Shown: one piece after another, positions 14,717 through 31,651 of the stretch
Layout of the letters: every line of letters starts with the position of its first letter
How positions within the stretch are numbered: the stretch's first letter is position 1
Notes under the pieces: generated by a model
Database searches by the model: none
The model's input: the letters and a program-made list of their open reading frames with translations, nothing else
What the model was told of the DNA's origin: nothing
Assembly: GCA_026016225.1 (NCBI GenBank)
Contig: CP061210.1
Location: 450,000 to 513,999, forward strand
Direction of reading: 5' to 3'
Source of the DNA: Candidatus Nealsonbacteria bacterium
GTDB taxonomy: Bacteria > Patescibacteriota > Minisyncoccia > Minisyncoccales > JANBVM01
Length of the DNA stretch: 64,000 bases
Made by a program: the position numbers and the translations under genes

Positions 14717-14796
14717 TTTCAAAAAAAATAGGAGAAAGAAATTTCTTATTTCATCTCCCTTAATATCTCATTATCTGAATAAATTGATTAAATTAC

Positions 14797-15099: not shown

Positions 15100-15200
15100 C
15101 CAATCACTCCTTTTTTTATTTTTAAAATATCTTTTATATTATTTAAAGTTACAATAATTTATTAAAAAAAGCAAGTTCATTACAGCTTGAAAAAAATTAA

Positions 15201-15276: not shown

Positions 15277-15345
15277 TATTATTCTTCATTCTAATAGTAA
15301 GCAAAATGTAAGTTGGAGGATTGGAATTTCTATACTTGCTCCTGA

Positions 15346-16539: not shown

Positions 16540-17276
16540 AGTTTTTCACCTTCTTTTATCTCTTTAAGATTTTGATAGATGAGATAGTTGTAGATTACAG
16601 AAAATGGAGTAAAGAGAATCATAAAAGCAAACTGACCAAGATAAGGAATAAATTGGGCGCCCATAGAAAGAGGAATGGTAATAATTATTATGGCATAAAC
16701 TCGCTTGGCTGTCGGCCACCAGTATCCTTTAACTAATTGTTTGCTTCTTGAAAGGGCTTTAAATCCTCTTTTGTCTTCGCAGATAACTATATAATAAGAA
16801 AAAACAAACCAGATAGCAAAAATAATACCAGGGATTATAAAAAGCAGAAATCCCAGCCCAATAGCCAGTCCAGTTAATAGAGAAACCAAAAAGAAAGGCC
16901 AATATTTAGACCAGCCGTTTTTAATGGCATCTTTAATTCTCCATTCTTTGGGAACTTCTTTAACGGCAGAAATAAGAGAAGTGGCCCCCAAAATACTTAC
17001 GAGAGATGTGGCTAAAATAATGGACAAGAATAAATACCAAGGCAGAGTTAAAAGCGGTTCGGCTTTGGCGGGCATAAAAATAGGAGTAGGTGAAGGTTGG
17101 ACTCTCGCTTCAGGGAGTTTGGGAATTTCCAAACCGATAAAATTCATTATTAAACCCGTGATTCCAAAAAAGATAACCGCAATCACTAAAAACTTCTTGA
17201 AATCCTTTTTATAGATATTCCAAGAACTTCGGAATAGATCCTTTATGCCTATCAGTTTTTGTGTTTCATTTGTCAT
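16536..17276 (-). CDS. Polytopic membrane protein
   Basis: 246 aa with several hydrophobic helices. 4-nt overlaps with both neighbours indicate an operon. Confidence 0.5.
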   Translation of the reverse strand: MTNETQKLIGIKDLFRSSWNIYKKDFKKFLVIAVIFFGITGLIMNFIGLEIPKLPEARVQPSPTPIFMPAKAEPLLTLPWYLFLSIILATSLVSILGATSLISAVKEVPKEWRIKDAIKNGWSKYWPFFLVSLLTGLAIGLGFLLFIIPGIIFAIWFVFSYYIVICEDKRGFKALSRSKQLVKGYWWPTAKRVYAIIIITIPLSMGAQFIPYLGQFAFMILFTPFSVIYNYLIYQNLKEIKEGEKL

Positions 17277-17521
17277 CTTTGCTTTTTTTCTATTCTCTTA
17301 TTTAGATAACCCTGGAGAAAGAAATAAACAACAAAAAACACTAAAGCACCAATTAATGATTCAATTAAATCAAATTGTCCGTGCCGAAGGTATTTTACTA
17401 GTGAAAAAGCAATAAAAAACGAAACTGTTGTGATGATCGCAATCGGCAAAGGATTCTTTTTTTGTTTTAGATTACTTCTTAACATATTTCCTTGATTTAT
17501 TACTGTAATAAAATAAGGCAA
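17273..17521 (-). CDS. Small membrane protein
   Basis: 82 aa, two hydrophobic segments. Start uncertain because it overlaps the upstream ORF. Confidence 0.35.
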   Translation of the reverse strand: MPYFITVINQGNMLRSNLKQKKNPLPIAIITTVSFFIAFSLVKYLRHGQFDLIESLIGALVFFVVYFFLQGYLNKRIEKKQR

Positions 17522-17876
17522 TACTGAATACCAATAAGATAAGGAATATCAGAATTACTAAAGGTGGTGGTATTTCAGAATCCTTTATATAAGCGTGGAT
17601 TCCAAAAACGAGCATTAACAAGCAGGTAAAAGCATAGAGAGAAGCAAACATATATCCCACAGGTATTACATCAGAAAGGGCCTCCTCTTCGCTTCTTTTA
17701 TAAAATCTTTTGATGAACAAAGCTATAATTACTCCGATTATTAAATAAGCAAATAATCTAATACCATAATTTGCTGGTAAATGTTCTAAAATAAGATATA
17801 AAACAGCGGGAACAAAAACTATGATTATTAATGATAACCTGAATATAAATTTTAATGTTTTTCTTGGGTCTTTCAT
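17472..17876 (-). CDS. Membrane protein
   Basis: Four hydrophobic segments. The ATG at 17876 is preferred because the upstream ATG lies inside the TGGTAGAAT -10 box. Confidence 0.45.
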   Translation of the reverse strand: MKDPRKTLKFIFRLSLIIIVFVPAVLYLILEHLPANYGIRLFAYLIIGVIIALFIKRFYKRSEEEALSDVIPVGYMFASLYAFTCLLMLVFGIHAYIKDSEIPPPLVILIFLILLVFSIALFYYSNKSRKYVKK

Positions 17877-17883
17877 CACTCCC

Positions 17884-17892
17884 ATTCTACCA
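17884..17892 (-). promoter_or_regulatory. Extended -10 box TGGTAGAAT, 7 nt from the ATG (leaderless-type)
   Basis: Minus strand: GGCGGTTTTTTGGTAGAATgggagtgATG. Confidence 0.5.
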
Positions 17893-18049
17893 AAAAACCG
17901 CCCGAGAGGCGACTTTTTGTTTATACTTAAAATTCGATTTCCTAGACGGATATGGCGATTTTTTCTCGAACTGCTTTTAAAATATGAGGACTTTCGGTCG
18001 CTCGAAAGGTCTCACTAGTCTGCTCTACTACTGAGATTAGAACCTGTCT
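17888..18049 (-). repeat. Composite S/T-type repeat
   Basis: Minus strand: AGACAGGTTCTAATCTCAGTAGTAGAGCAGACTAGTGAGACCTTTCGAGCGACCGAAAGTCC...GTCGCCTCTCGGGCGGTTTTTT. Starts ~10 nt after the pyrD stop. Confidence 0.7.
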
Positions 18050-18058
18050 AATGGGTAT

Positions 18059-19696
18059 TTAAATCTGGTGAGACTTTAAAAAATTACCATCAACGCAACT
18101 CCTATATCCTTTTGAAGTTGCACAACTCCCACATAAACCAATTCCACATTTTGTTAAAAACTCTATTGCAGAATATATTTTCTCCGGATTTATATATTTA
18201 CTTTCCTTCCGGATAGCAGCTTTTACCATAGGCTTTGGACCACAGTTTATACAATACTCTGGTTGGGTATTTTTTATAATTTCTTCTAACACATCGGTTG
18301 CTAATCCTTTGTAACCTATTCCACCGTTTTCTGTAACAAAATAAACTTCATCAAACACTTTCTTAAACTTTTTTAAATCAGGCAAATGATTTTTATCCTT
18401 TGCTCCTAATAATGCAATCATATTTTTGTTTCTTTTGCCAAAAAGATATAAAGCAGCAATACCCGTTCCTCCTCCAACCAAAAGAGTCTCCCCTTTTATT
18501 TTTGGAGAAGTTCCGTAAGGACCACGTGTGTAAATAACATCATCTTTTTTCAAATTTAATAACTCATTTGTAAAATATCCTCTTTTCTTAACAAGTAGAG
18601 TTAAAGGTTCATCATCAAACACAGAAAACGGTTTCTCTCCCTTCTCCGGTAGCCAGACAAAAATAAATTGCCCTGGCTCTACGTTTATACCTCTGTCTAA
18701 CTTTAAAATAAATAAATCCTCAGCTATCTGTTTATTCTCTTTCACCCTGTATCTTTTATATTCCATTTTAGTATCTTTTAAAAAGCCTTCTGCGTTGTTT
18801 GTTCCGTTTTCTAAATCCAATAGCAATTCGTAGAAATATCTTTTTATCTCTTCTGTATTCATTCCGACCAATGCAGAGCCTATTCCAAAAAAGTTGGCAC
18901 CTGCTTCCTTATATCTTTTTATATCTTTTATTGTTGAAATGCCGCCGCATGAAATTATTGGCAAATTTGTAATTTTTCTTAGCTCTCTTACACATTTTAA
19001 ACCAATCTCTAAAATTGCCTTTCCAGAAATACCTCCAACTTTATTTGAAAGAATTGAATAGCTGTCATGTAAGCACGTTTCCGGTCCCTTTGTATTTATT
19101 GCTGTTATTCCAGAAGCACCTCCTCTAATTGCATATTTTACAGTTTCTTTTACATCTAAATTGGGAGAGATTTTTACGAAAACAGGTTTTCCTAAAGAAG
19201 CAATACTTTTTGTTAATCTCTCTACCAATTCCTTATCTCTACCCACAACCTGACCGTATTCTTCAGAATGAGGACAAGATATATTTAGCTCAAATCCATC
19301 ACTATAATTATATAGAATTTTGGATATTTCTTTTAATTCCTTTTCACAATTTCCAAATACTGAAGTCAATAAGAATTTATCATTTGGAATACTTATTTTT
19401 GATAATCTTTCTGCGAATTCTTTTGCTCCGGGGTTAGTGAGACCAACAGCATTAATAAAAGATAAAGGAGCATATTGGGCAATAATAGGTTCTTTATTTC
19501 CTTCACAGGATTTTATACCAATACTTTTTGTAGTTATTATTCCCAATTCCGGGATTTCATTAGCAAACTTTTCAATAACTGATACCTCTGTAGTAACTAT
19601 ACCTGAGGGTATTGTAAAAGGCGCACTAATTGTTTTGTGAAAAAAATTATACATAGGCGTAACGGTCAGCATATAATTGTAGGGTATGGCGAGCAT
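18059..19696 (-). CDS. pyrD: Dihydroorotate dehydrogenase (class 1B-like catalytic domain) fused to a PyrK-like FAD/NAD(P)-binding and 2Fe-2S electron-transfer domain
   Basis: N-terminal TIM-barrel motifs (GLTNPG, NISCPH, AINTKGP, GGISG, SCGGIST). C-terminal LLVGGGTGIA and CGIGLCGSC. The start may be an internal Met. Confidence 0.75.
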   Translation of the reverse strand: MLAIPYNYMLTVTPMYNFFHKTISAPFTIPSGIVTTEVSVIEKFANEIPELGIITTKSIGIKSCEGNKEPIIAQYAPLSFINAVGLTNPGAKEFAERLSKISIPNDKFLLTSVFGNCEKELKEISKILYNYSDGFELNISCPHSEEYGQVVGRDKELVERLTKSIASLGKPVFVKISPNLDVKETVKYAIRGGASGITAINTKGPETCLHDSYSILSNKVGGISGKAILEIGLKCVRELRKITNLPIISCGGISTIKDIKRYKEAGANFFGIGSALVGMNTEEIKRYFYELLLDLENGTNNAEGFLKDTKMEYKRYRVKENKQIAEDLFILKLDRGINVEPGQFIFVWLPEKGEKPFSVFDDEPLTLLVKKRGYFTNELLNLKKDDVIYTRGPYGTSPKIKGETLLVGGGTGIAALYLFGKRNKNMIALLGAKDKNHLPDLKKFKKVFDEVYFVTENGGIGYKGLATDVLEEIIKNTQPEYCINCGPKPMVKAAIRKESKYINPEKIYSAIEFLTKCGIGLCGSCATSKGYRSCVDGNFLKSHQI

Positions 19697-20579
19697 TAGG
19701 CTCTATTGGAAGATCACGGAGTGCAATTTGTGCCGGTATCCAAATATAATCTTCTGCCTCTTCGTTTAATCTAACATGCTTACTTTTCACATTAACTACG
19801 TTATCAACAAAAATATGTTGTATCCCTGACAAGTAATAACCAGAATTCTTTATTTGATCAAAAGTGCAAAGATGCTCTCCAACTTTCCCCTCTAAACCTG
19901 TTTCTTCTTTAACTTCTCTAAGTAAAGCATTTTCAAGGCGTTCATTTCTACGAACTTTGCCACCTACAATTGAATAACGCCCCTTCCACTTATGAGTTTT
20001 TACAAGAAGAATTTCTTTTTCTTTTTTTCCAGAATCATATTCAATAATTCCTCCTGCAGCCACAACAGAACCAGGAACCATTAAGTCTTCCCAGAGTTTA
20101 TGAATTGTTTGTTGGTCCTGCGTTATTTTAGGTTCTGGAAGTTGCCCGTATTCTTGAATAAATCCAGCAAGATCTCGGGCTTTCCAGATGGAATTTTTAT
20201 GCACATATACAGGATGATCCCGTGGGCTCTCTGAAAAAAAACATCTTACATTTGTAACTTGAGCGATACCGAGCTCATAAGATGCACTTTTACCTATGTA
20301 TCCTTCTGGATCTATAAAGTAACTGAAACCGTTTTCTCCTAATCTCTTCAGATTATGCAAATATAATAATTCAATTATCCGAGGATCTTTATTTTCCTCT
20401 CCTTCTAAAAACGCAAAACCCTCTACAGAAGAAGTGATTTCTGCTTCACGTGGCGCTAAAACTTCAATGCCAGCTTCAGTAAAAATACGGTGAGTATTTT
20501 TAATTAAACCCCAATATTTGCGGAAACTGCCGTGCAACACACACCGAAAAGCTGTTTTTTTATTATTAGCTAATTCCAT
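19647..20579 (-). CDS. Nucleoside 2-deoxyribosyltransferase-like domain fused to a NUDIX hydrolase domain
   Basis: N-terminal half has GKSASYELGIA (NDT/DNPH1-like catalytic Glu context). C-terminal NUDIX box GGKVRRNERLENALLREVKEETGL. Confidence 0.65.
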   Translation of the reverse strand: MELANNKKTAFRCVLHGSFRKYWGLIKNTHRIFTEAGIEVLAPREAEITSSVEGFAFLEGEENKDPRIIELLYLHNLKRLGENGFSYFIDPEGYIGKSASYELGIAQVTNVRCFFSESPRDHPVYVHKNSIWKARDLAGFIQEYGQLPEPKITQDQQTIHKLWEDLMVPGSVVAAGGIIEYDSGKKEKEILLVKTHKWKGRYSIVGGKVRRNERLENALLREVKEETGLEGKVGEHLCTFDQIKNSGYYLSGIQHIFVDNVVNVKSKHVRLNEEAEDYIWIPAQIALRDLPIEPNARHTLQLYADRYAYV

Positions 20580-20613
20580 ACTTTTCCCGTCTTCATATTT
20601 ACCCGATATGATG

Positions 20614-20709
20614 AAAAAATCAAGCTTAAAATGAGCTTGATTTTACTATCTTGGCTCTTGGACGCTTGCCCTTCCGAAGCTAAAGCTGAGGAAGGATGTT
20701 AGAACCTGA
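20614..20709 (-). repeat. S-type intergenic repeat with internal hairpin insertion
   Basis: Minus strand: (TAG stop)TCAGGTTCTAACATCCTTCCTCAGCTTTAGCTTCGGAAGGGCAAGCGTCCAAGAGCC...ATCAAGCTCATTTTAAGCTTGATTTTTT. Confidence 0.7.
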
Positions 20710-21237
20710 CTAAGCTATCCCATCTCTTAAACTTTTATCTGATGTATTATTATATTTACCTTTCCAAGTATCTTTCTTACCTTTCTTTAGAATCTTATCA
20801 ACCAGTTCAATTTCTTCTCTAAGACCAGGAACGAATTTGTATTTATCTAACTCAACTGCTGTAATCCAGGCATAATCTACTGATTCTTCTGAAAGTTTAA
20901 CCTCTCCTGAACCATAGTCACAATAAAGACTAATAATTATAGTTGGAATATCATCTGCTCTAATGAAAGAAAGACTTAAAAGGTAACGAATGTTTTTAAC
21001 CTTTAATCCGACTTCTTCTTCAATTTCTCTTTCTAAAAGATTTTCCAGGACATTATACCAGTGGTCAGCTGTGTCTTTGGGCAGGCTTGAGTAATCACTC
21101 TGTTTAAGTTTTCCTCCAGGAACCGTCCAAAGTCCTGGAAATGCTTTTTCTTTTGGACTTCTTTTTGTAATCAAATATTTACCATCTTTAACAATAATTC
21201 CAGTAACTACTACATAGTGAAGTTTTTTGTCTATCAT
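20710..21237 (-). CDS. NUDIX hydrolase
   Basis: NUDIX box GGKLKQSD...LLEREIEEEVGL. 175 aa. Confidence 0.8.
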   Translation of the reverse strand: MIDKKLHYVVVTGIIVKDGKYLITKRSPKEKAFPGLWTVPGGKLKQSDYSSLPKDTADHWYNVLENLLEREIEEEVGLKVKNIRYLLSLSFIRADDIPTIIISLYCDYGSGEVKLSEESVDYAWITAVELDKYKFVPGLREEIELVDKILKKGKKDTWKGKYNNTSDKSLRDGIA

Positions 21238-21243
21238 ATCTTG

Positions 21244-21252
21244 ATTCTACCA
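21244..21252 (-). promoter_or_regulatory. Extended -10 box TGGTAGAAT, 6 nt from the ATG (leaderless-type)
   Basis: Minus strand: TTAGATTGGTAGAATcaagatATG. Confidence 0.5.
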
Positions 21253-21286
21253 ATCTAAAATAGGATTTTTACAATGTTTATTTTTT

Positions 21287-21514
21287 CTACTTTAATACCT
21301 CCTCCATCCTTTCCTTTATTTTTGCAATTTCTTCATCTAGTTCATCTTCCCGAGATTCTAATGCCTTCTTTTTTCCCTCTCCTAATTCATCAGGGTGTAT
21401 AAGTTTTGTCTCGATATCAGCTTTCTCCTCCATTAATTTTTTCAATTTCTCTGCTAATTCCTGCGCTTCGGGAGTCGGTTCTCTTGACTCTCCTCTTGGT
21501 TCTCCTATTGGCAT
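21287..21514 (-). CDS. Small acidic coiled-coil protein (75 aa)
   Basis: ORF only. E/K-rich. Confidence 0.35.
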   Translation of the reverse strand: MPIGEPRGESREPTPEAQELAEKLKKLMEEKADIETKLIHPDELGEGKKKALESREDELDEEIAKIKERMEEVLK

Positions 21515-21581
21515 ATTTATAAAAAATAAATTAAATATTAATAAAATCGACCTTTTATTTTATCCCACTTCCTTACAAGAT

Positions 21582-21653
21582 AAAACCCGAAACAACAACT
21601 CTCGGGCAAAAAATCGTAACTCCCGCCGACTGGACGCTGTTAGAACCTGTTTG
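21582..21653 (-). repeat. S-type intergenic repeat
   Basis: Minus strand: CAAACAGGTTCTAACAGCGTCCAGTCGGCGGGAGTTACGATTTTTTGCCCGAGAGTTGTTGTTTCGGGTTTT. Confidence 0.75.
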
Positions 21654-21663
21654 GTTGGATTAA

Positions 21664-22872
21664 TTACTCTGAGAAGCCAAAAGTAAAAAGGATTTGGCTG
21701 TAGAGCGTTTTATTATCTTCGTTGTCTACATCTAACATACTAATCTTAAAAAGTTTATCATTCTTTATGAAGTAAGTATCTTCTTGAGAATAAGCCATAG
21801 GTGATTTGGGGGTATAGACTCTGATAGCTGGTATTCCGTCTACTTCCATATTTATCTCATCGGGAATATCTTCGTAATAAGGAAAGTTTTCTTTAACCCA
21901 TTGAACAAGGTCTGTGCCAACAGGAGGACTATAATAATCAACATAAATAGAATGGAAAACAACGAATGAAGCACCGGTTAAATCAGATTTTGTGCCGGTA
22001 AATGTTCCGAGAGACACGCTGTCTGGATCTTCGCCATTTAAGTAACACAGGCATTCTCGAGGTCTTTCTTCTGGTGGTTTTAGTTTACAATAACCGGGCA
22101 AAGGACCATAAAGACAGTCTGTGGGATACTTAAAAGAGTAGCCATATTTTTCACTCGTATAAACCTGCCAGTCCTCGGTTGCATATTCCATCTCGGTTTT
22201 CTCTAACTTGCCGCATTTGACAGTTATATCCCACTCCCACTTATCAGCTTCAGGCATAATCATCGGACCTTCTGCCTCTTTATATCCAGTAAGACCTCCT
22301 GCAACCGCACAAACATCTTTATCTTTCTTGTATCCTGTTGATTCCGAAATAGTGCCAGCTGCTATATTGTAAAGATCTACCTCAAAGCCATTATCTTTTA
22401 AAAACTGTTCAATACTATCATATTGTTCACTTGATATTCTATTAGCTTCAAATCCTTTTCCAACCACAATCTCCTCTGTTATTTCTGGGTCTACCTTAAC
22501 AATCCACTTAAATTCAACTTCTTCTGCTTCTGAAAAATCTATAACTGTCTCTTGCTTAAGATTTTCAAGAAGAGCTAAAACCTCATCTGAAGATACACAC
22601 TCACTTCCGTTAAAGCATTTGTCGGGTCCGCAATCACAAATTTTTACTTGATGACTGTTTTCTGGCGAACAGCCACAAGGACCAATAAGGCACAGGTTAG
22701 GAAAATCACCGGTTGCTTTGCAGCACAATGAAGTTGATACCTCTCCTCCAGAATCTATACAAGCTTGTTCTTTTTCGGTTAGTTCTTCAGGCGTTGTCAT
22801 TAATTGGTAAATCCAGTAACCCATTCCTGCAACAATTATTATAATAATGATTGCAATTATTGTTTTTGACAT
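21664..22872 (-). CDS. Membrane-anchored, Cys-rich extracytoplasmic protein (402 aa)
   Basis: N-terminal TM helix, then a Cys-dense segment (CIDSGG...CCKATG...CLIGPCGCSPEN...CDCGPDKC). Confidence 0.5.
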   Translation of the reverse strand: MSKTIIAIIIIIIVAGMGYWIYQLMTTPEELTEKEQACIDSGGEVSTSLCCKATGDFPNLCLIGPCGCSPENSHQVKICDCGPDKCFNGSECVSSDEVLALLENLKQETVIDFSEAEEVEFKWIVKVDPEITEEIVVGKGFEANRISSEQYDSIEQFLKDNGFEVDLYNIAAGTISESTGYKKDKDVCAVAGGLTGYKEAEGPMIMPEADKWEWDITVKCGKLEKTEMEYATEDWQVYTSEKYGYSFKYPTDCLYGPLPGYCKLKPPEERPRECLCYLNGEDPDSVSLGTFTGTKSDLTGASFVVFHSIYVDYYSPPVGTDLVQWVKENFPYYEDIPDEINMEVDGIPAIRVYTPKSPMAYSQEDTYFIKNDKLFKISMLDVDNEDNKTLYSQILFTFGFSE

Positions 22873-22927
22873 ATTATTTTATCATTAAGCTTATATTTTG
22901 ACCTTTCGTTTCTATTCTACCACAAAC

Positions 22928-22990
22928 AAAACCCGATAAAAATTCTCGGGCGTGCCATGTTGCGGATATTGGATGATATTACCTGTTCAG
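22928..22990 (-). repeat. S-type intergenic repeat (divergent core)
   Basis: Minus strand: GAACAGGTAATATCATCCAATATCCGCAACATGGCACGCCCGAGAATTTTTATCGGGTTTTG. Confidence 0.6.
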
Positions 22991-23000
22991 TAGGAAATTA

Positions 23001-23498
23001 TTAACCTTTTTCTCTTTTAAAAATCCCCAACTTAATTAAATAAAATAATATTCCAACCAAAAAGGATAAAGCACAAAAAAGATAAATTTGTTGGGATGAA
23101 AACAAGCCAAAAAATGGATTGTTTTCAAAGGGGTAAAATGGATTCATCTCTTTATAGAGGAATGAATCTAAAAGAAGATGGAAATAAACGCCAAAAAATG
23201 ATGTCCAGAGGATTTTTTTAAATGAGGAATCTTGAGGTATTTTGAAAATAGCCATTATTTTTTTAATCTTACCTTTTAAAAGATATAAGATTATGGCAGC
23301 TAACACTGCTAATATTGAGCCACCCAAAAAGCTATGAAAGAATCCATGAAGCGGATAATTTAAGTTTAGAAAAAGAACACAAAAGGGCTCAATATCAACT
23401 ATGACACTGGCTATAAGAAGCGTAGGGAAATCAAGAATCTTAAATAGAAGTAATCCTATCCAAGAACTTGGTCCCCAATGAAAAGGTGTAAGTGGCAT
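23001..23498 (-). CDS. Polytopic membrane protein, possibly a metal-dependent hydrolase (His-rich motifs)
   Basis: MPLTPFHWGP..., HGFFHSFLGG and YFHLLLDS motifs. 165 aa. Confidence 0.35.
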   Translation of the reverse strand: MPLTPFHWGPSSWIGLLLFKILDFPTLLIASVIVDIEPFCVLFLNLNYPLHGFFHSFLGGSILAVLAAIILYLLKGKIKKIMAIFKIPQDSSFKKILWTSFFGVYFHLLLDSFLYKEMNPFYPFENNPFFGLFSSQQIYLFCALSFLVGILFYLIKLGIFKREKG

Positions 23499-23516
23499 TT
23501 TTAAAATTTTAGTTCT

Positions 23517-24383
23517 TTAGGACTCAACTTCTATCAAACTTTTCTCATAAGCCCACCTTAGCTTTTTATCTCCCTCATATTTTTTCCTTATTTCCCAAGC
23601 TTTCTTTGAGTCATTGCCAGCTAAACTCATAAGAACTTCAGCAGGAGTAACATCTTCGAGTTCATTTCTTAACTCCCAGGATTTTTCTGAATCAAGGCCA
23701 GTAGTACTTCTTACCACATCACCTGGTAAATATAATCCCCATAATTTTTTTCCTAATCCTGTATTAAAAGCCTCTTTTAATCTAAAAAACCTTTCTGATT
23801 TATGAAGACCAATAGATTTTTGAATCCTTGCCCATACTCCTCCTCTAATTCTGTTTACTTTTGAATCGAATTTAAGGTGGTCTCTTATTTTCCAGGCTTC
23901 TTCCGAATCATCGCCCATCAGCCCCCGGCTTATTCCCCACCATAATTTTAGAGTTTCTTTATGTTCATCTAACCATTCTCGGGATTTTTCAGATGCTACA
24001 CCAGCTAAACTTATACATACGTCTGTTGCATCTTTACTCTCTCTTTCTTTCCAGGCTTCTTCTGAATCATCCCCCATTAGATCCTTAAGCGTTTCCGGGA
24101 CTCTTTCTCCCATTACTTCTTTTATTGTCTCTAAATTTTTTTCTTTTCCTTCAGACTTTTTCTCTTCTGATTTTTCTTTCTCTATTTTTTTAAATGTTTC
24201 TTCTAACTCTTCTTGTGTTCTTTCTATCTTTTCTTCTTCCTCTTTTTGCATTTTTTCTAACTCTGCCTGGTTGAATTCTTTTTCTATTTCCTTTTTTTCT
24301 TTGATTTCTTCTTCCACCCTCTTTTCTTCTTCAGGCTTTTTTTCTGTCTCCTTTTCTTTAAATTTTGGTTCTTTTTCGAACAT
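23517..24383 (-). CDS. Acidic repeat protein with (S/G)L(A/M)G-x-DS-x-x-(A/S)W-x-x-R repeats
   Basis: E/K-rich N-terminal half. At least 5 repeat copies (LMGDDSEEAWKER, SLAGVASEKSREW, LMGDDSEEAWKIR, TGLDSEKSWELR, SLAGNDSKKAWEIR). Confidence 0.5.
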   Translation of the reverse strand: MFEKEPKFKEKETEKKPEEEKRVEEEIKEKKEIEKEFNQAELEKMQKEEEEKIERTQEELEETFKKIEKEKSEEKKSEGKEKNLETIKEVMGERVPETLKDLMGDDSEEAWKERESKDATDVCISLAGVASEKSREWLDEHKETLKLWWGISRGLMGDDSEEAWKIRDHLKFDSKVNRIRGGVWARIQKSIGLHKSERFFRLKEAFNTGLGKKLWGLYLPGDVVRSTTGLDSEKSWELRNELEDVTPAEVLMSLAGNDSKKAWEIRKKYEGDKKLRWAYEKSLIEVES

Positions 24384-24415
24384 ATATTGATTAAACTAGA
24401 AGTTAAATAAAGCCT

Positions 24416-24937
24416 TTATAAGCCCTGTTTCGTACCCTTAACTTTCTTAATCAACTCTTCCCTTAATTGCTCTGCTATTTGAACATCAAGTCCAGGAAGC
24501 TTACCTTCAGTTCTTCCTATTTCATAACGCCCATATCCTCCTGAATAGCCAGCGGTTTGAATCTGGAGGTTACTTAGTCCAAGAAGTCTTGCGAAAACTC
24601 CTCTATAAATATCAACATTTTGAACTCTTTCATAGGGAATTGAAATATATTTTTTCCAGATTACTCCTTTTTCTATTTTTATCGCGTCTTCGGTTAATTC
24701 ATAACGCCAGAAACGATAAGTTAATTTAGCCCAAATGTAACAGAAAATAATATATAAAAGAAAGAATAAAATTAACCATTCCCTTGGAAGAGCAAACACT
24801 TCTTGGCTAATTGCTTTCTGAATCGTTATAAGAAAGGGCACAATGAAAAAGATGGCCAAAAGGAATCCGAAAATACCGAAGGCGAAAAAAAACTGGAAGA
24901 AAAATAACCAAACTGCTTTAGGGTGTAATTTTTCCAT
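24416..24937 (-). CDS. Membrane protein with bacterial PH domain (bPH_2 / YdbS-like)
   Basis: Two N-terminal TM helices, then YRFWRYELTEDAIKIEKGVIWKKYISIPYERVQNVDI. Confidence 0.7.
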   Translation of the reverse strand: MEKLHPKAVWLFFFQFFFAFGIFGFLLAIFFIVPFLITIQKAISQEVFALPREWLILFFLLYIIFCYIWAKLTYRFWRYELTEDAIKIEKGVIWKKYISIPYERVQNVDIYRGVFARLLGLSNLQIQTAGYSGGYGRYEIGRTEGKLPGLDVQIAEQLREELIKKVKGTKQGL

Positions 24938-24997
24938 ATTTAAACTTTATTTTAACTATAATAACCGACCTTTCTTTTTATTATATCATTATATCAT

Positions 24998-25063
24998 AAA
25001 AACCCGAGAAAAGAAAAACTCTCGAGCCGGGCCATGCTGCAGGTCTTGGACGAGAAAGTTTAA
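24998..25063 (-). repeat. S-type intergenic repeat (5'-truncated core)
   Basis: Minus strand: AAACTTTCTCGTCCAAGACCTGCAGCATGGCCCGGCTCGAGAGTTTTTCTTTTCTCGGGTTTTT. Confidence 0.6.
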
Positions 25064-25113
25064 ATAAAAAAGAGCGGCTCTATATTACCGCATCTCTATT
25101 TTATTAGATAGAA

Positions 25114-25413
25114 CTACTTAATTTTAAGAATACTGAATTTTGCTTTTTTTATACTAATGTCAAATACCCAGTCATCAGGGACAGTGTTACCATTTACCTC
25201 TAAGAGATACCAATAGTCATCAAAAAAAACACTAAAATTGTGAAAGCTATTCTTTGCTGAAACAAAGAGAATTTCTTTTAATTTTTGTATTGCTTCTTCA
25301 AAAGAATCTGCTTCTATTTCTTCTTTTCTTTTTCTGGCATCCTTATATTGTGGCCGTATCATGCTTCCAGAACACTCTTCCGTAAACTTAAAAACAAACT
25401 TTTTACTTAACAA
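25114..25413 (-). CDS. Hypothetical protein (99 aa)
   Basis: ORF only, non-ATG start. Confidence 0.35.
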   Translation of the reverse strand: MLSKKFVFKFTEECSGSMIRPQYKDARKRKEEIEADSFEEAIQKLKEILFVSAKNSFHNFSVFFDDYWYLLEVNGNTVPDDWVFDISIKKAKFSILKIK

Positions 25414-25480
25414 CCTAACATCACATTTTATTTTTTATACTTTTTAAAATTGGAGCTATACCAAGTTTATCAAAATCTAT

Positions 25481-25554
25481 AAAAAAATCAAGTTCAGAAC
25501 GAGCTTGATTTTACTCACTGGGGGCCTTGGACGATGTTAGAACCTGTTTTATGA
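25481..25554 (-). repeat. S-type intergenic repeat
   Basis: Minus strand: TCATAAAACAGGTTCTAACATCGTCCAAGGCCCCCAGTGAGTAAAATCAAGCTCGTTCTGAACTTGATTTTTTT. A separate terminator precedes it. Confidence 0.8.
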
Positions 25555-25563
25555 TGGTTTGAA

Positions 25564-25597
25564 TAAAAAAAATAGCCTTGTTGTATTACCAAGGCTT
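25564..25597 (-). terminator. Rho-independent terminator of the dUTPase-deaminase gene
   Basis: Minus strand: AGCCTTGGTAATACAACAAGGCT followed by ATTTTTTTT. Confidence 0.7.
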
Positions 25598-25610
25598 GCA
25601 TGTTTAATGA

Positions 25611-26462
25611 TTATAAATTTACATAACGAACACTAATTCCCGCTTCTTTTAACACACTTATTCCATCAGTAGTAGAGACTTCTTCTAATAAAATTACATT
25701 TTCTATTCCACTTTGGACAATCAATTTTGAACAAATATCACACGGTGCAGCATTAAGATACATATCAGCGCCTCTTGAAGAGGTGCCACCAGTAGCTACT
25801 AAATTACTCAAAGCTTGCATTTCAGCACAAATTATGCCTTTATTCCCCATGGAAATTATGTTAGAATTTTTAACTATTAAACAACCTGCTCCTTCAGGAG
25901 AATGTTCAGCTACTAATTGAACAATCGTCATATAAAACTTATCTTTTTCTTTAATCTGTTTTTGATACTCTGTAGTTCCCTCTTTAATTTCAAATAGACC
26001 GGTAGAACCAAAACCTCCTGCCCCCCTAAGGGTTTCTGGAAGATCTTCAGATTCTTCTAATACAGGAATTTTAACTTCAGAGAAAATTAGCTGAGCAACT
26101 CTCATACTTTCTTCTACTATAAAAGGTTTCTTACCCCGGTTCCTTAAGAGAACCCCTGCCTCTCCCCTGAAATCTGGATCAATGGTCCCAGGAGAATTAG
26201 ATAATTCAATATCATATTTGCATGCCAAACCACTACGGGGCCGCACTTGAGCTTCATATGTCCAAGGTATTGCAAATTGGACCCCTATTCCAATTAAAGC
26301 GCTTTCTCCAGGTTTTATTGTTATTGGGAGTTTTCCAGTTATCTCTTTGGTAATTTTATTTAACACTATTGAAGCATAAGCATCGAAACCTACTGCATTA
26401 TACGTGGCCCTTTCCGGTATACGAGCATTTTTTCTAATCTTTCTTACTTTAACATTATTCAT
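25611..26462 (-). CDS. dUTPase fused to a dCMP/cytidine deaminase-like zinc domain
   Basis: dUTPase motifs VGFDAYA, RPRSGL, GTIDPDFRGE and RGAGGFGSTG. C-terminal CAEMQAL...PCDICSKLIVQSGI deaminase motifs. Confidence 0.75.
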   Translation of the reverse strand: MNNVKVRKIRKNARIPERATYNAVGFDAYASIVLNKITKEITGKLPITIKPGESALIGIGVQFAIPWTYEAQVRPRSGLACKYDIELSNSPGTIDPDFRGEAGVLLRNRGKKPFIVEESMRVAQLIFSEVKIPVLEESEDLPETLRGAGGFGSTGLFEIKEGTTEYQKQIKEKDKFYMTIVQLVAEHSPEGAGCLIVKNSNIISMGNKGIICAEMQALSNLVATGGTSSRGADMYLNAAPCDICSKLIVQSGIENVILLEEVSTTDGISVLKEAGISVRYVNL

Positions 26463-26532
26463 TTCTTTTTCATCACTTCCGACTTTTAAAGAGCTTTTTC
26501 TTTTTAATAAGTCATATTATTAAATAATTATT

Positions 26533-26604
26533 AAAAAATCAAGTTCACTCTGAGCTTGATCTTAGCATCTGCGGGTCTTGGACGATTTTAGAATTTGTTC
26601 GATG
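26533..26604 (-). repeat. S-type intergenic repeat
   Basis: Minus strand: CGAACAAATTCTAAAATCGTCCAAGACCCGCAGATGCTAAGATCAAGCTCAGAGTGAACTTGATTTTTT. Confidence 0.75.
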
Positions 26605-26617
26605 AATACAAATTATT

Positions 26618-27145
26618 CTACTTCAGCTTTTTTAATATCTTTTGAATAAAAGCTGATTTGCGGGTCGTATATGTATCACGGTCATATTTATATTTCTGTG
26701 CTAATTTCTTTTTTAACTCCGTATATTTTTTAGCAATCTTTTTGTTTTTACGAAGATAATCTCTAAAAAGTATATGATTTTTCCAAAGTTCTCCGCTTAA
26801 CTTCTCTATATGGACATAATGAGTTCTATTAACCTCGCTTCCCTTTGCAAAGAAATGTCTTCCTCTTATGCCCGCATCTCCTTTATATTCATATCCTAAT
26901 TTTTTAAGAAGCTTAATACATTCTTCTCCAACTTTTAGAGATTTTACGCCAATAGCTATATCAATTATGGGTTTAGCTTTAACTCCAGGAATTGAAGTAG
27001 CACCAACATGTTGAATATCTAAAACATATTTTCCAATCGTAGAAAGAAGTAGTTTTTCTTCTTTTTTATATAATTTTTTCCATTCTGGTTTGTAAGTGGA
27101 TAATTTAACTTTACCTCTTTGGAGACCTATAATTTTTGATTTCAT
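26618..27145 (-). CDS. GrpB family protein
   Basis: HVGATSIPGVKAKPIIDIAIGV motif. Start moved to Met45 (27145) because the 5' extension of the tracked ORF runs through a repeat/terminator and a -10 box. Confidence 0.7.
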   Translation of the reverse strand: MKSKIIGLQRGKVKLSTYKPEWKKLYKKEEKLLLSTIGKYVLDIQHVGATSIPGVKAKPIIDIAIGVKSLKVGEECIKLLKKLGYEYKGDAGIRGRHFFAKGSEVNRTHYVHIEKLSGELWKNHILFRDYLRKNKKIAKKYTELKKKLAQKYKYDRDTYTTRKSAFIQKILKKLK

Positions 27146-27152
27146 ATACTTT

Positions 27153-27161
27153 ATTTTATCA
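27153..27161 (-). promoter_or_regulatory. Extended -10 box TGATAAAAT, 7 nt from the ATG (leaderless-type)
   Basis: Minus strand: CGCGTTTTGTGATAAAATaaagtatATG. Confidence 0.45.
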
Positions 27162-27162
27162 C

Positions 27163-27262
27163 AAAACGCGAGAGAAAAACTCTCGGGAGCTAGTGGATCC
27201 GGGGATGGTACAATATACAAACCGCTACGCTGTAATTCCTTCGGAATTAAGAGAACTTGGTT
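27163..27262 (-). repeat. S-type intergenic repeat (divergent)
   Basis: Minus strand: AACCAAGTTCTCTTAATTCCGAAGGAATTACAGCG...CTAGCTCCCGAGAGTTTTTCTCTCGCGTTTT. Confidence 0.5.
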
Positions 27263-27361
27263 TGTAAGCTTGTCCAATTAGAGCCTTGACAGAAATTAAG
27301 AGATAGGTTAAAAGTAAGGTAGAAAATTAAATTATTAATAAAAGATAACTTGTGATAAAAA

Positions 27362-27682
27362 TTGGAAATATATACTCCAGGGTTTAATAAGATTAGAAGG
27401 CTTTTATATCCTATCATTTTAGACTTTTTAGGAAAATACGGGGAAGCTAGTGGAACGGAAATTATGGGATTCATTAAAAAGATGAAGGGAAAGGAGGAGA
27501 AAAAGTTTAAGTTAATAGATTTTGTATATAGATCTTTAGCAGATTATAGCGACCAGATTCAGGAAGTTCTTGTAGATATGATAAGACTTTGTTTAGTTGA
27601 CCAAACAAGATTTGGATATAAATTATCATTATTAGGAAAAGATTCTATTGGTAAAGATTTTGATGAAATAATATTAGGATAA
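27362..27682 (+). CDS. Hypothetical small protein, possibly winged-helix
   Basis: 106 aa. The only plus-strand ORF in the 12-42 kb array. A plus-strand terminator follows it. Confidence 0.35.
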   Translation: MEIYTPGFNKIRRLLYPIILDFLGKYGEASGTEIMGFIKKMKGKEEKKFKLIDFVYRSLADYSDQIQEVLVDMIRLCLVDQTRFGYKLSLLGKDSIGKDFDEIILG

Positions 27683-27722
27683 AATATAGAAAACAAAGGA
27701 AGATTAATTTATTCGATAATTT

Positions 27723-27748
27723 GGTGCAATAGCACCTATTTTTTTTAT
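27723..27748 (+). terminator. Rho-independent terminator
   Basis: ggtgcaatagcacc followed by tatttttttt. Confidence 0.6.
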
Positions 27749-27756
27749 TTCTAAAC

Positions 27757-27897
27757 CTTAAAATCCGAGACAATCCGCCAGCTGGCAGAACCCGGGTTTT
27801 AAAAGCCCCCTTAGTCGGTCTCGAACATAGTTTTTAAGGGGAAACTAAGGGCTTTTTGAAGGTGTCCCACAATGCCCCTCGGTCGGAGCTGTTTTAA
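27757..27897 (-). repeat. L-type long intergenic repeat
   Basis: Minus strand: AAACAGCTCCGACCGAGGGGCATTGTGGGACACCTTCAAAAAGCCCTTAGTTTCCCCTTAAAAACTATGTTCGAGACCGACTAAGGGGGCTTTTAAAACCCGGGTTCTGCC... Confidence 0.7.
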
Positions 27898-27909
27898 ATA
27901 AGGAAAATT

Positions 27910-28938
27910 TTAGTCTAAAATTTCTGTGAACCATCTTTTGATCACTTCTTTTGTTTTTGGGTTCTGTTCAATAAAAAATCCTGGAAGATCTACTTCGAGA
28001 AAATAAAATCTAAAAGCAAAAAATCCAACAACCTTGTCCTTTCCCTTTTCAAGCACTATTTCATAGGCTCTGGCAATCTCTTCTTCATTCCAAGGTCCGC
28101 CCATCAACACTCCAAATTCAGTAATTATGACACCCTTGCAGCCATCCCTCTCTGCTTTGGCGAGCATGAAATCTAAAGCTCCTTCAACACTTTCTGAATA
28201 CTCTTCTAACGTCTGCTCAGACATTAACATACTGCCAAACCCTATATAATCATATCCTGCGAAATCGCCCGGGGGCTGTTCAGGTGTTTTGGATATCGAT
28301 TCTTTATCAGGAAAGCCAGGCATAGCCCCATTCCAAGCAACCTCGCCATTGTAAACCTCTTTTATCTTTAGGAGAATCTCCTGTCTCCACACTCCAATAT
28401 TTTTCTTAAAAATCTTCTCCGGTTCATTTAAAGGAGTAAAAAGTTCAACATCATACTCTTCTGCCAGTTTAGCCACCTCAATGATTCTGGAATTAAGAGC
28501 TTCTAAATCTACGTTTTCTGGCACAGGAGGATCCCCTACAGTTAATGCAACCTTCAAACCATTTCTGTGAACAGTTTGGATGTTATTAATTATAAGCTCT
28601 TTTTCAACAGGAAGGATCTCTTTAAGCTTTTCAAGCAGCTCAGGAGAAAAAACTTCTCTAATTCTTTCAAAATCAGGCTCGGCAAGAGGAGAAAGGGCCG
28701 CAATGAAAATCGTATTGATCCCAAGATCTTTCAGCTTCTGTATATTGGAAGCCAGGTAATTCGGATCCTGAAGCAATAACGTGGGCATCCAAGCTCCTTT
28801 ATAAATATAAACTTCTTCCTCTGCTTTTTCTTCCTTTGTTTTTTCCGTATCAGCAACAAAAATATTTTTATAGACAAAAAATCCTCCTATACCTAAACCA
28901 ATCAAAATTATTAAAATGATTAAAGTTTTTGTTTTCAT
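27910..28938 (-). CDS. Secreted/anchored TIM-barrel glycoside hydrolase-like protein (GH5-like)
   Basis: N-terminal TM helix. FTPLNEPE (acid/base NEP) and VIITEFGV (nucleophile-like) motifs. Confidence 0.5.
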   Translation of the reverse strand: MKTKTLIILIILIGLGIGGFFVYKNIFVADTEKTKEEKAEEEVYIYKGAWMPTLLLQDPNYLASNIQKLKDLGINTIFIAALSPLAEPDFERIREVFSPELLEKLKEILPVEKELIINNIQTVHRNGLKVALTVGDPPVPENVDLEALNSRIIEVAKLAEEYDVELFTPLNEPEKIFKKNIGVWRQEILLKIKEVYNGEVAWNGAMPGFPDKESISKTPEQPPGDFAGYDYIGFGSMLMSEQTLEEYSESVEGALDFMLAKAERDGCKGVIITEFGVLMGGPWNEEEIARAYEIVLEKGKDKVVGFFAFRFYFLEVDLPGFFIEQNPKTKEVIKRWFTEILD

Positions 28939-28946
28939 GTTTCTTT

Positions 28947-28955
28947 ATTCTACCA
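28947..28955 (-). promoter_or_regulatory. Extended -10 box TGGTAGAAT, 8 nt from the ATG (leaderless-type)
   Basis: Minus strand: GCGGTTTTTTGGTAGAATaaagaaacATG. Confidence 0.5.
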
Positions 28956-28973
28956 AAAAACCGCTTGCAACCA

Positions 28974-29288
28974 CTATTTCCATCTATTCTTATCTCTCTT
29001 CTCATACTTTTCCAATACCTTATTAAAAGCATCTTCCAAGTCTATTTCCATTGAATTAGCCATACACACCAAAATATAGAGAATATCAGCTATTTCGGAA
29101 CTAATTTCTTTTTCTTTTTCATTTGCCTTCTTAGTCTTCTCTCCGTATCTATGATTTATTTCCCTTGCTAATTCTCCAACCTCTTCGGTTAGTCTCGCCA
29201 TCATGCTTAACGGCTTCCAATAGGTCTGAGTGCGAGTGTTCTTCTTTATCCAATCATCTACTTTTTTTTGCATCTCTTGTATCTGCAT
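28974..29288 (-). CDS. MazG-like nucleotide pyrophosphohydrolase
   Basis: LTEEVGELAREI and EIADILYILVCMAN (EExxE/ExxD-type helices). 104 aa. Confidence 0.75.
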   Translation of the reverse strand: MQIQEMQKKVDDWIKKNTRTQTYWKPLSMMARLTEEVGELAREINHRYGEKTKKANEKEKEISSEIADILYILVCMANSMEIDLEDAFNKVLEKYEKRDKNRWK

Positions 29289-29327
29289 AGTTTTATTGTT
29301 TTTAAATTTATCATCTTATATTATAAC

Positions 29328-29398
29328 AAAAACCCGATAAATAATCTCGGGCTAAACAGAGCTCCGGGGGCTGGACGATGTTCAAACCTATTTTATGA
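29328..29398 (-). repeat. S-type intergenic repeat
   Basis: Minus strand: TCATAAAATAGGTTTGAACATCGTCCAGCCCCCGGAGCTCTGTTTAGCCCGAGATTATTTATCGGGTTTTT. Confidence 0.75.
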
Positions 29399-29539
29399 AT
29401 AATAAAGAGGTTTTTGAGATGCCAGTTTTGGCTGATCTTTGATCTTACCCCACCCTGCTACTCACTATTTTAAAATATAGCTCAAAAAAAACAACCCACC
29501 GAGAAAATCCCGATAGGCTGTCTTTTATTTAAGACTGGA

Positions 29540-30403
29540 TTAAAATTCTATCTTTATATTTCCGTTGTCCAATCCTGTCCTTGCAGTTCCTACACAATCA
29601 CTTTCATCTGTAAAGTCACCATCATGAGTATCGTATATTGCACCTCCTTGAGGGTTAAAAATCTGTACCCGTGCCGTATCATAAATTCTTGGTTCGCCGG
29701 AATCTCCAGCCCTGAAAATCATCTTATAGCCAGGCTCATGATTCAATTCTCCCATTGCAGTAAAGTTCATGGCAGAGCAAGTTGTGCCCGTAAAGAAATT
29801 CAAGTCCGTTATATTGGTCATATGAAATTTGGACTTATTAAATTCTTCTGTATTAACATTGTGGAAATTAACTTGCCACTCACCAATTAATCCATAACTA
29901 CCTACATTAGCAACAGCTCCTCCAAAGCTAATATCTAGCTAGTCCTTACGTTTACCTTCAACCTCTTCTAGTAAATGCCCTCCACCACTTATATAATCAT
30001 CATTGATAATCCAGAACCAGCGTGTAAGGCGAACATCTATAGCACCTGCATCTTCTCGAGGATTTAATATAAAGCAATACTTTCCAGAAGTCCAGGTGGA
30101 TACATCGGCAGTTGCACTGAATAAGCTTCCATCCCATAAATATGGGTCATTGTAACCATCGACATTTCCTAAAACAGTATTAGTGCCAGCAGCACAAGTA
30201 CCTTCTCTAACCGCCCAAGAAACAGGATCCCAATCTTTATTCTCATCAATATAGATGGCTTTTAGATTTATAGTTCCAAAAACAAATTCACCTTCGTCTG
30301 AAGAGGTAATTGTACTGTTACTTAAAGCAAGTCCAGGTAATGTTAAAATCATACTACTTGAAAGAGTGACTGTGGTTATAATTGCAATAATAAGTTTTTT
30401 CAT
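29540..30403 (-). pseudogene. Secreted protein gene interrupted by a single in-frame TAG (29939..29941): pseudogene or read-through candidate
   Basis: ORFs 29939..30403 and 29540..29821 are in the same frame. Manual translation of 29822..29938 shows no other stop (..GKRKD*LDISFGGAVANVGSYGLIGEWQVNFHNVNTEEFNKSKFHMTNIT..). Confidence 0.6.
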
Positions 30404-30506
30404 TTTTTATATGGCCGATTTAATTTTTATTTCTCGACCTTTGCTCCTCCTTTTCGCTTTCACACTAAAGCTCATTTATTGAAAAGTCAAGCCCGAAATG
30501 GACTTT

Positions 30507-30586
30507 CTACCAAAAAACCGCCCTCTTGAGAAAACGATTGAAGTTGGCTGTGGGTCATGGACGACATTAGAACCTGTTTTATGACT
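30507..30586 (-). repeat. S-type intergenic repeat
   Basis: Minus strand: TCATAAAACAGGTTCTAATGTCGTCCATGACCCACAGCCAACTTCAATCGTTTTCTCAAGAGGGCGGTTTTTTGG. Confidence 0.75.
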
Positions 30587-30671
30587 ACAGAAAGGTTTGT
30601 TGTTATACCGAATTATACATAAAAAACTCCCCTCTTTAAGTCTGTCCAGAGAGTTCATAAATAAAGAGGTG

Positions 30672-31649: not shown

Positions 31650-31651
31650 AC

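Follow-up and report, generated by a model that had tools for sequence, protein, structure and literature searches.

Bacteria of the candidate phyla radiation (CPR; Patescibacteria) have been described as relying on nucleotide salvage, in an account that does not discuss the enzymes considered here (PMC7304191). The described systems closest to these enzymes are DNPH1 (Rcl) and the nucleoside 2-deoxyribosyltransferases (NDTs; PF05014), NUDIX hydrolases of the NudI/MutT type, Dcd:Dut, in which one dUTPase-fold domain carries both activities, and the dCMP deaminases (ComEB/DCTD). For the arrangement of the genes, the nearest comparison is with integron arrays. Here we examine a 64,000-nt stretch (the window; proteins UZE92994 to UZE93048) of the complete genome of Candidatus Nealsonbacteria, which at 661,413 bp is reduced, as the initial annotation of this DNA had supposed. 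Region 19647-29288, part of a minus-strand gene run of ~33% G+C, encodes five proteins of nucleotide-related families, two of them fusions. We find that these genes probably do not make up one system and instead represent a lineage-specific juxtaposition of ordinary Patescibacteria salvage and house-cleaning genes in a repeatedly rearranged, repeat-rich stretch. The open reading frames (ORFs) of the initial annotation were all confirmed at their coordinates, and nearly all of its domain calls were right (Pfam, NCBIfam, and translations), but two nucleotide-related genes of the window, at 18059-19654 and 11698-12273, had been overlooked. The five genes are as follows.

19647-20579, minus strand: NDT-NUDIX, an NDT/DNPH1-like domain (~residues 1 to 168) followed by a NudI-like NUDIX domain (residues 175 to 301), 310 aa (Pfam, homologue profiles)
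20710-21237, minus strand: NUDIX175, a stand-alone NUDIX hydrolase, 175 aa (Pfam, NCBIfam)
25611-26462, minus strand: trimeric dUTPase fused to a minimal zinc deaminase of the cytidine deaminase (CDA) fold, 283 aa (Pfam, NCBIfam, motifs)
26618-27145, minus strand: GrpB, of a nucleotidyltransferase-fold family (Pfam)
28974-29288, minus strand: MazG/YpjD-type all-alpha NTP pyrophosphohydrolase, single domain (Pfam, PDB 2gta)

The NUDIX domain of the first fusion scored above the Pfam cut-off (E = 4.9e-14), its NUDIX box, GX5EX7REUXEEXGU, is fitted exactly by GKVRRNERLENALLREVKEETGL, and its best sequence matches in the PDB are NudI structures 3n77, 3oga, and 6dt3 (E ~1e-9); it fell under the NudI equivalog cut-off of NCBIfam. 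This half is thus like the NudI/MutT-type enzymes in its intact box and unlike them in its low similarity and in its C-terminal position in a two-domain protein. The N-terminal domain (N-domain) gave no direct match in Pfam (E up to 10) or in a PDB profile search. Structure models had predicted local distance difference test (pLDDT) scores of 75 for the full protein (AlphaFold2) and 69.5 for the N-domain, and Foldseek searches with these two models found no significant match, the best (E ~0.1) being TIR domains and other flavodoxin-like folds. An N-domain profile retrieved 751 representatives from a library of 1.84 billion proteins, many of them stand-alone proteins of 130 to 180 aa, and among 10 distant stand-alone members, 5 gave sub-threshold matches to PF05014 (Nuc_deoxyrib_tr; E 2e-5 to 0.04); the sole other family matched was PF15891, in one of the ten. 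The single invariant acidic residue of the family (alignments A2, A3, and A4) is E102 of SYELG, which aligns with GYELG of human DNPH1, the Glu of which we take to be the catalytic nucleophile of that enzyme; the DNPH1 sequence that we aligned agreed with that in the PDB. A direct hhalign comparison of the N-domain with DNPH1 gave an E value of 0.014 and a probability of 3%. The N-domain is probably NDT/DNPH1-like, sharing with DNPH1/Rcl and PF05014 a three-layer alpha/beta architecture and an invariant Glu in (Y/F)E(L/M)G and with DNPH1 a GSFR after strand 1 that resembles, by eye, GSIR. It differs from DNPH1 and the nucleoside 2-deoxyribosyltransferases in being fused to a NUDIX domain and in lacking a direct Pfam or PDB match or a significant Foldseek match. 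The earlier label "NDT-like" therefore stands through indirect family links (sub-threshold PF05014 matches and the DNPH1 Glu) but not through any direct match. The same profile also matches 43 separate stretches of a single 7,573-aa protein of the representative library (P0284).

This fusion had been called an unusual architecture, and that description did not hold. We found 766 homologues, and the 120 listed were all full length and 65 to 82% identical, bar one sister sequence at 99%. With each species represented by a single genome, a scan placed NDT-NUDIX in 39 genomes across the phylum, with identities of 84% in Nealsonbacteria and 61 to 70% in other Paceibacteria, Daviesbacteria, WWE3, and Saccharibacteria. 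Two further full-length homologues (~52% identical) came from metagenome-assembled genomes (MAGs) labeled Nanoarchaeia and Methanosarcinales (L047 and L048), copies that could reflect either cross-domain transfer or mis-binning. NDT-NUDIX is, on this distribution, a highly conserved, phylum-wide family of predicted enzymes. The domain order and the closest relatives of the two parts (NudI for NUDIX and DNPH1 for the N-domain) make two consecutive steps most likely: the NudI-like half would turn a (deoxy)nucleoside triphosphate into its monophosphate, and the DNPH1-like half would then cut the N-glycosidic bond to give base plus (deoxy)ribose 5-phosphate. An organism that lives on scavenged nucleic acids would thereby dispose of nucleotides that are unwanted or modified, or recycle them.

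The second fusion was likewise described as unusual and likewise turned out to be common across the phylum. Its dUTPase half (Pfam E = 8e-22) contains all five dUTPase motifs (AVGFDAYA, RPRSG, GTIDPDFRGE, RVAQL, and RGAGGFGSTG), which are conserved in alignment A1, and scored above the curated dut cut-offs (NF001862, 140.1 bits versus 103; TIGR00576, 135.7 versus 102.55). The deaminase half matched dCMP_cyt_deam_1 (E = 5e-14) and carries the zinc-binding motifs CAE and PCxxC (PCDIC). It reached neither the ComEB model TIGR02571 (35 bits versus a cut-off of 219, with long-form homologues at 49 to 51 bits), nor the model for single-domain dCTP deaminase (TIGR02274, 31.9 bits versus 92.8), nor that for the anti-phage dCTP deaminase (NF041025, 44 bits versus 400), a model that includes an N-terminal kinase-like domain and with which only ~50 residues around the zinc motif align. 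Among the 120 best homologues, the dUTPase half was kept in every one and both Pfam domains were found in 117, the other three (P0027, P0049, and P0070) having a C-terminal extension without a deaminase call. Those homologues that bear a name in their sources are called dUTP diphosphatase and assigned to Patescibacteria, Parcubacteria, or Paceibacterota. This fusion is the standard dUTPase gene of the phylum.

Most of these homologues are 337 aa long. The 283-aa Nealsonbacteria form has two deletions in the deaminase domain, of ~25 and ~30 residues, which include the Cys-rich insert of dCMP deaminases. In near relatives P0004 to P0006, the catalytic Glu has been lost (CAG or CAV), and P0049 and P0070 are without PCxxC (alignment A1). 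The deaminase half, which is trimmed in this genus, may therefore be under relaxed selection or decaying, since the catalytic Glu or PCxxC is gone in some near relatives, while the dUTPase half appears intact. The latter is predicted to remove dUTP by converting it to dUMP. The substrate of the deaminase half cannot be read from the sequence, because the ComEB and anti-phage dCTP deaminase models score equally, both far under their cut-offs. It might act in parallel, converting dCMP to dUMP, or in sequence, converting dCTP to dUTP that the fused dUTPase would hydrolyze, as a two-domain analogue of Dcd:Dut; either route would feed thymidylate synthesis. An analogy for the sequential route is vertebrate CDADC1, which is described as a dCTP deaminase of the CDA fold. 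The fusion is predicted to achieve what Dcd:Dut does in net terms, in that cytosine deoxynucleotide and dUTP would go to dUMP for thymidylate synthesis and dUTP would be kept low, but unlike the single dUTPase-fold domain of Dcd:Dut, the fusion has a separate, zinc-dependent, CDA-fold deaminase domain at its C terminus. It differs from dCMP deaminase (ComEB/DCTD) in lacking ~55 residues, including the Cys-rich insert, and in scoring far under the ComEB cut-off.

We then compared the window with sister genomes CP179891 (L188) and CP179892 (L189) and with a related MAG (L006, L007, and L058), which are 93 to 99% identical in DNA. The further features of the window are as follows.

20580-20709, minus strand: intergenic repeat element of ~130 bp, a motif broken by a 31-nt hairpin and followed by a terminator-like hairpin
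25553-26599, minus strand: dUTPase cassette of 1,047 bp, made up of motif, hairpin, promoter, gene, and its own terminator (blastn)
26594-35287, minus strand: strain-specific 8.7-kb segment with 10 ORFs, including those of MazG and GrpB (alignment with L188)
18059-19654, minus strand: dihydroorotate dehydrogenase (DHODH)-like PyrD-PyrK fusion (Pfam; below NCBIfam cut-off)
13737-18050, minus strand: 4.3-kb insertion relative to L188 (junction comparison)
13761-14261, minus strand: AAA_33/zeta-toxin-like P-loop kinase (Pfam)
11698-12273, minus strand: CYTH/class IV adenylate-cyclase-like (CyaB) protein (above NCBIfam cut-off)
60108-60794, minus strand: Cys-rich protein of 228 aa, named MazG-like family by NCBI (PDB match at E = 0.65)

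All four genomes share a backbone that runs bPH_2, a 288-aa protein, YdjM, proteins of 402 and 75 aa, NUDIX175, NDT-NUDIX, the DHODH-like gene, a variable slot, CYTH, and DUF2330, so that in each of them NUDIX175 directly precedes NDT-NUDIX and the DHODH-like gene is next downstream. The slot between the DHODH-like gene and CYTH holds no genes in the MAG (L007), two in L188, five in L189, and eight in the window, including YceG and the kinase, which occupies the slot in this genome only. The 4.3-kb insertion that brings in the kinase also carries an acyltransferase fragment, two small ORFs, YceG, and a 100-aa ORF; it has ACAGGTTCTAA at both edges, and L188 has a single motif at that point. The 1,047-bp dUTPase block recurs in the MAG (L058, 9864-10910, 95% identical) and in L188 (4513-5557, 94%; blastn) in differing contexts. 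Relative to bPH_2, the cassette lies directly upstream in L188, right after RlmN; one gene off in the window; and five genes off in the MAG; in L189 it was not found within 5.6 kb of bPH_2. The window differs from L188 by the extra 8.7 kb between RlmN and this cassette that carries MazG and GrpB (L188 2710-4443 corresponds to window 37021-35288 and L188 4513-5557 to window 26593-25554). L189 retains the GrpB promoter and ~35 codons, 96% identical (L189 2353-2485 versus window 27053-27187), and GrpB was therefore deleted there rather than gained here.

These gene orders and indel boundaries, like the domains, motifs, and distributions given above, are direct observations, and they sort the five enzymes: NUDIX175 and NDT-NUDIX belong to the backbone, the dUTPase fusion is a semi-fixed core gene, and GrpB and MazG are strain specific. 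The proposal that they had been acquired as separate units fails for NUDIX175, NDT-NUDIX, the DHODH-like gene, and CYTH, which are fixed in all four genomes; GrpB, MazG, and the kinase are strain specific at these positions. Furthermore, small motif-bearing elements with a terminator and a promoter interrupt gene pairs whose translation is otherwise coupled. The ~130-bp element separates NUDIX175 from NDT-NUDIX here; the MAG is without it, and there the NUDIX stop codon abuts the NDT-NUDIX ATG. The stop codon of NDT-NUDIX and the start of the DHODH-like gene overlap by 8 nt (19647-19654), and in the MAG only, a 518-bp element (L007 10925-11442) lies between these two genes and replaces the last two NDT-NUDIX codons.

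The repeat underlying these elements is real (a 20-mer from it has 10 matches versus 0 expected). On the gene strand and just after stop codons, the module consists of AAACAGGTTCTAACATCGTCCA with a tail of ~11 nt (..CCGGAGC or ..CCGCAGC), usually followed by a G+C-rich hairpin with a T-run and by an extended −10 promoter. Its copies in the window are as follows.

12919-12949, 13707-13737, 21621-21651, 25518-25548, 26569-26599, and 29362-29392, minus (gene) strand: motif copies
30548-30578, 36349-36379, 59827-59857, 60844-60874, and 61793-61823, minus (gene) strand: motif copies
20580-20709 (ending at 20710) and ending near 18050: irregular copies, the former interrupted and the latter partial

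The initial annotation had placed each enzyme in its own repeat-bounded unit, and only the dUTPase fusion forms a clean single-gene unit, bounded by the motif copies that end at 26599 and 25548. The unit of NUDIX175 also holds the 75-aa ORF, there is no repeat between NDT-NUDIX and the DHODH-like gene, a 342-aa gene lies 35 nt downstream of MazG, and no canonical motif was seen upstream of GrpB. The broader view of the region as modular was borne out: the sister genomes differ by gene-sized indels whose ends fall in the repeated intergenic modules, most cleanly at the 13737-18050 insertion. Core genes (RlmN, DnaX, PBP2/MraZ, and the DHODH-like gene) have the module next to them as well. We found the motif in more than 120 metagenome contigs, a lower bound (e.g., loci L068 to L147, especially L092, L119, L107, L136, and L144), some with dense same-strand arrays; one such array packs 14 copies into 5.8 kb, among ORFs of 50 to 230 aa. 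The tails are the same throughout one array and different from array to array. In 69 of 76 cases, the motif was co-oriented with the upstream gene, at a median of 34 nt past the stop codon. Four arrays matched no Rfam family at permissive thresholds, and a 16-mer scan of viral contigs gave 7 matches.

By eye, the tail of the motif is like the 3′ end of tRNA-Gln, a resemblance that is unproven. We rejected a tRNA identity for the motif: ARAGORN and Rfam call only tRNA-Gln and tRNA-Glu in the window, and the motif cannot form a T-arm. Fragments like tRNA 3′ ends (GGTTCGAATCC...CCGGAG) are repeated together with the hairpin GCTCGGTTCGAGNGACCGAGA at 15201-15286, 41759-41848, 61761-61798, 63286-63345, and 32395-32424. 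One such set directly follows tRNA-Gln (41869-41940), none is called as a tRNA by either program, and the hairpin GCTCGGTTCGAGNGACCGAGA is also found 3′ of the motif in other genomes (L011 and L083). Another repeat family, of 80 nt, is represented three times (27805-27884, 37018-37097, and 41011-41090).

The question is then why these enzymes lie together. With ~607 kb of other Patescibacteria loci as a phmmer background, we counted ~6 matches to these families (~0.1 per 10 kb), compared with 4 extra in 9.6 kb here; a Poisson calculation made by hand on these counts gave P ~3e-6, as a post hoc and rough comparison. The reported concentration of nucleotide enzymes is thus denser than the background, but by a rough, post hoc test, and the gene order is not conserved outside the genus. 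When we looked 10 kb to either side of NDT-NUDIX in 39 other genomes, a single adjacent NUDIX gene was all that appeared of these enzymes, and in 396 kb of other motif-bearing contigs none of these families recurred except for the DHODH-like gene. The possibility, raised at the outset, that the fusions are common, vertically inherited housekeeping genes with conserved synteny proved right as to their being common phylum-wide, whereas the synteny is kept within the genus only. Several points weigh against the reading of an ordinary juxtaposition. The enzyme density is well above the measured background, such that pure coincidence is not a comfortable explanation; the backbone run of NUDIX175, NDT-NUDIX, DHODH-like gene, and CYTH could be a functional unit in the genus; and a restriction-modification pair lies nearby in a region that is variable like defense islands. 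In addition, the assignment of the N-domain leans on sub-threshold and transitive matches and a modest model (pLDDT 69.5) with no significant Foldseek match, and a literature search found no paper on either fusion. Throughout this work we infer substrates, activities, two-step coupling, and the reason for co-location from sequence comparisons.

The high density, the differences between strains, the TdeIII-type restriction-modification pair at 38895-40855, and a KAP NTPase gene that adjoins the dUTPase cassette in the MAG relative would all fit a conflict island, in which the enzymes would serve as anti-phage or counter-defense effectors (by dNTP depletion or degradation of signal nucleotides) in a variable region like a defense island. 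PADLOC also matched NUDIX175 to the candidate model PDC-S07 (E = 1.5e-17) and the zinc motif of the deaminase to a dCTP deaminase model. These matches to PADLOC and NCBIfam defense models are, however, confined to generic domain cores far under cut-off (44 versus 400 bits), and a search of PADLOC-DB 2.0 gave no significant full-length match, only partial ones to generic NUDIX, zinc-motif (residues 211 to 260), and P-loop regions. Both fusions are phylum-wide, single-copy-like, and conserved; the enzymes are not accompanied by genes for a sensor or a partner; other variable arrays do not contain these families; and MazG is of the YpjD-type housekeeping form. Viral homologues of the fusions were not found either: IMG/VR contains no relative of NDT-NUDIX, and the other fusion matches viral contigs by its dUTPase half only. 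We therefore consider a conflict function, which the initial annotation had suggested and for which these searches gave no positive evidence (partial PADLOC matches, 44 versus 400 bits for the anti-phage deaminase, and no viral fusion), very improbable. The salvage or sanitation function that it had named alongside is supported as the natural reading of these families. A functional module at the level of the genus, in which NUDIX175, NDT-NUDIX, the DHODH-like gene, and CYTH would work jointly in pyrimidine salvage or catabolism with the dUTPase fusion kept nearby for the same reason, draws on the unchanged order in four sister genomes, the 8-nt overlap, the abutting NUDIX stop and NDT-NUDIX start codons in the MAG, and the position of the dUTPase cassette 0 to 5 genes upstream in three of the four. 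We judge it distinctly unlikely, since in the 39 other Patescibacteria genomes NDT-NUDIX never adjoins the DHODH-like gene, CYTH, or the dUTPase fusion, and insertions with their own terminator and promoter part the genes (518 bp in the MAG and ~130 bp here); with four genomes 93 to 99% identical, the shared order may reflect recent ancestry.

A further explanation looks to the repeat itself: an integron-like, site-specific platform would capture single-gene cassettes at the motif, with nucleotide enzymes as adaptive cargo gained one by one. The dUTPase unit, a discrete 1,047-bp block between motif copies that lies in different contexts in sister genomes, suits this idea, as do the identical ACAGGTTCTAA at the two ends of the 4.3-kb insertion, the dense same-strand arrays of motif and small ORFs in metagenomes (14 copies in 5.8 kb, tails uniform per array), and the sequence GTTAGAA on the opposite strand of the motif, near the integron core GTTRRRY. 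In these respects the locus is like integron arrays and clusters of attC sites lacking integron-integrases (CALINs), with same-strand short sites after small ORFs, uniform per array, and gene-sized gain and loss between strains. It is unlike integrons in that the sites are not imperfect palindromes, have no R″/L″/L′/R′ structure, and follow core genes and in that the breakpoints are not fixed; several junctions coincide with stop codons or fall within the repeated hairpin/promoter instead of the motif. An attC identity is ruled out for the motif: every copy of GTTAGAAC has the same orientation, and neither an inverted partner close by nor a palindrome was found. No integrase or recombinase came up when nearly all ORFs of ≥100 aa in the window were scanned with Pfam, a crude HxLRH (box II) regular expression run over 221 ORFs of motif-bearing contigs picked out a single protein, an NRAMP transporter, and nothing on integrons in this phylum was found in the literature. 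Moreover, NUDIX175, NDT-NUDIX, and the DHODH-like gene are immobile among the four genomes. Such a platform seems unlikely to us, and the data are explained equally well by homologous recombination among dispersed intergenic repeats and by a dedicated site-specific system. A more far-reaching combination, in which the fusions are sequential two-step machines and the motif is a new kind of recombination platform that has no attC hairpins and shuffles even core genes, we hold to be possible, if doubtful. If it were true, NDT-NUDIX, which at ~65 to 70% identity from class to class ranks among the most conserved Patescibacteria proteins and has homologues in MAGs labeled as DPANN archaea, would break unwanted or modified (deoxy)nucleotides down to base and sugar phosphate, the dUTPase-CDA fusion would channel dCTP via dUTP to dUMP, and the two together would form a nucleotide-sanitizing toolkit indispensable to a lifestyle of scavenging DNA.

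The remaining nucleotide-related genes are consistent with the reading of an ordinary juxtaposition of salvage and house-cleaning genes. NUDIX175 (NUDIX E = 2.4e-10) has the REIEEEVGL half of the box intact and an insertion in the first half. MazG (104 aa; PF03819 E = 3e-19, 69.3 bits versus a cut-off of 22) has visible EEVGE and EIAD metal motifs and aligns end to end with Bacillus subtilis YpjD (PDB 2gta, E = 5e-33), with no notable difference. Both would be generic house-cleaning pyrophosphatases. GrpB matched PF04229 with an E value of 7.7e-50 (169.6 bits versus a cut-off of 25.5), and its homologues, 67 to 75% identical, come mostly from Patescibacteria; a role of this family in the nucleotide pool is not established. 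To neither GrpB nor the kinase (AAA_33 E = 9e-25) do we assign a substrate. The DHODH-like fusion, with a conserved start at 19654 (the longest ORF, from 19696, is over-extended), fell under all NCBIfam pyrD cut-offs, and because it scored 190 bits versus 270, dihydroorotate may not be its substrate. The protein at 60108-60794, which the initial annotation had taken for a second MazG-like protein, in agreement with its NCBI name, matched nothing in Pfam or NCBIfam, including the MazG domain. Its sole PDB match (E = 0.65) is Sulfolobus SSO3215, a MazG-related protein entered in the PDB as hypothetical (1vmg).

Two other loci of the window may be recorded. The restriction-modification pair (minus strand) consists of a TdeIII-family endonuclease (Pfam E = 1.6e-57) and an N6/N4 DNA methylase. 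A 294-aa protein encoded at 43778-44662 (minus strand) strongly matches the TFIIB repeat (Pfam E = 1.1e-32) and, weakly and under cut-off, the TFIIB zinc ribbon (E = 3e-4); its gene adjoins GtrA, DnaX, and CysS and has the same neighbors in a more distant Patescibacteria genome (L003).

The families of the enzymes described here are well known, and public databases already contain hundreds to thousands of copies of the fusions, under generic names. Both fusions are phylum-wide and very conserved, which makes them good candidates for essential pool-sanitizing enzymes in nucleotide-scavenging bacteria. Four near-identical genomes further indicate that gene order in genomes of 0.65 to 0.69 Mb has been remodeled at a conserved intergenic repeat, in modules the size of a gene, and this remodeling bears on the flexible gene pool of reduced symbiont genomes.

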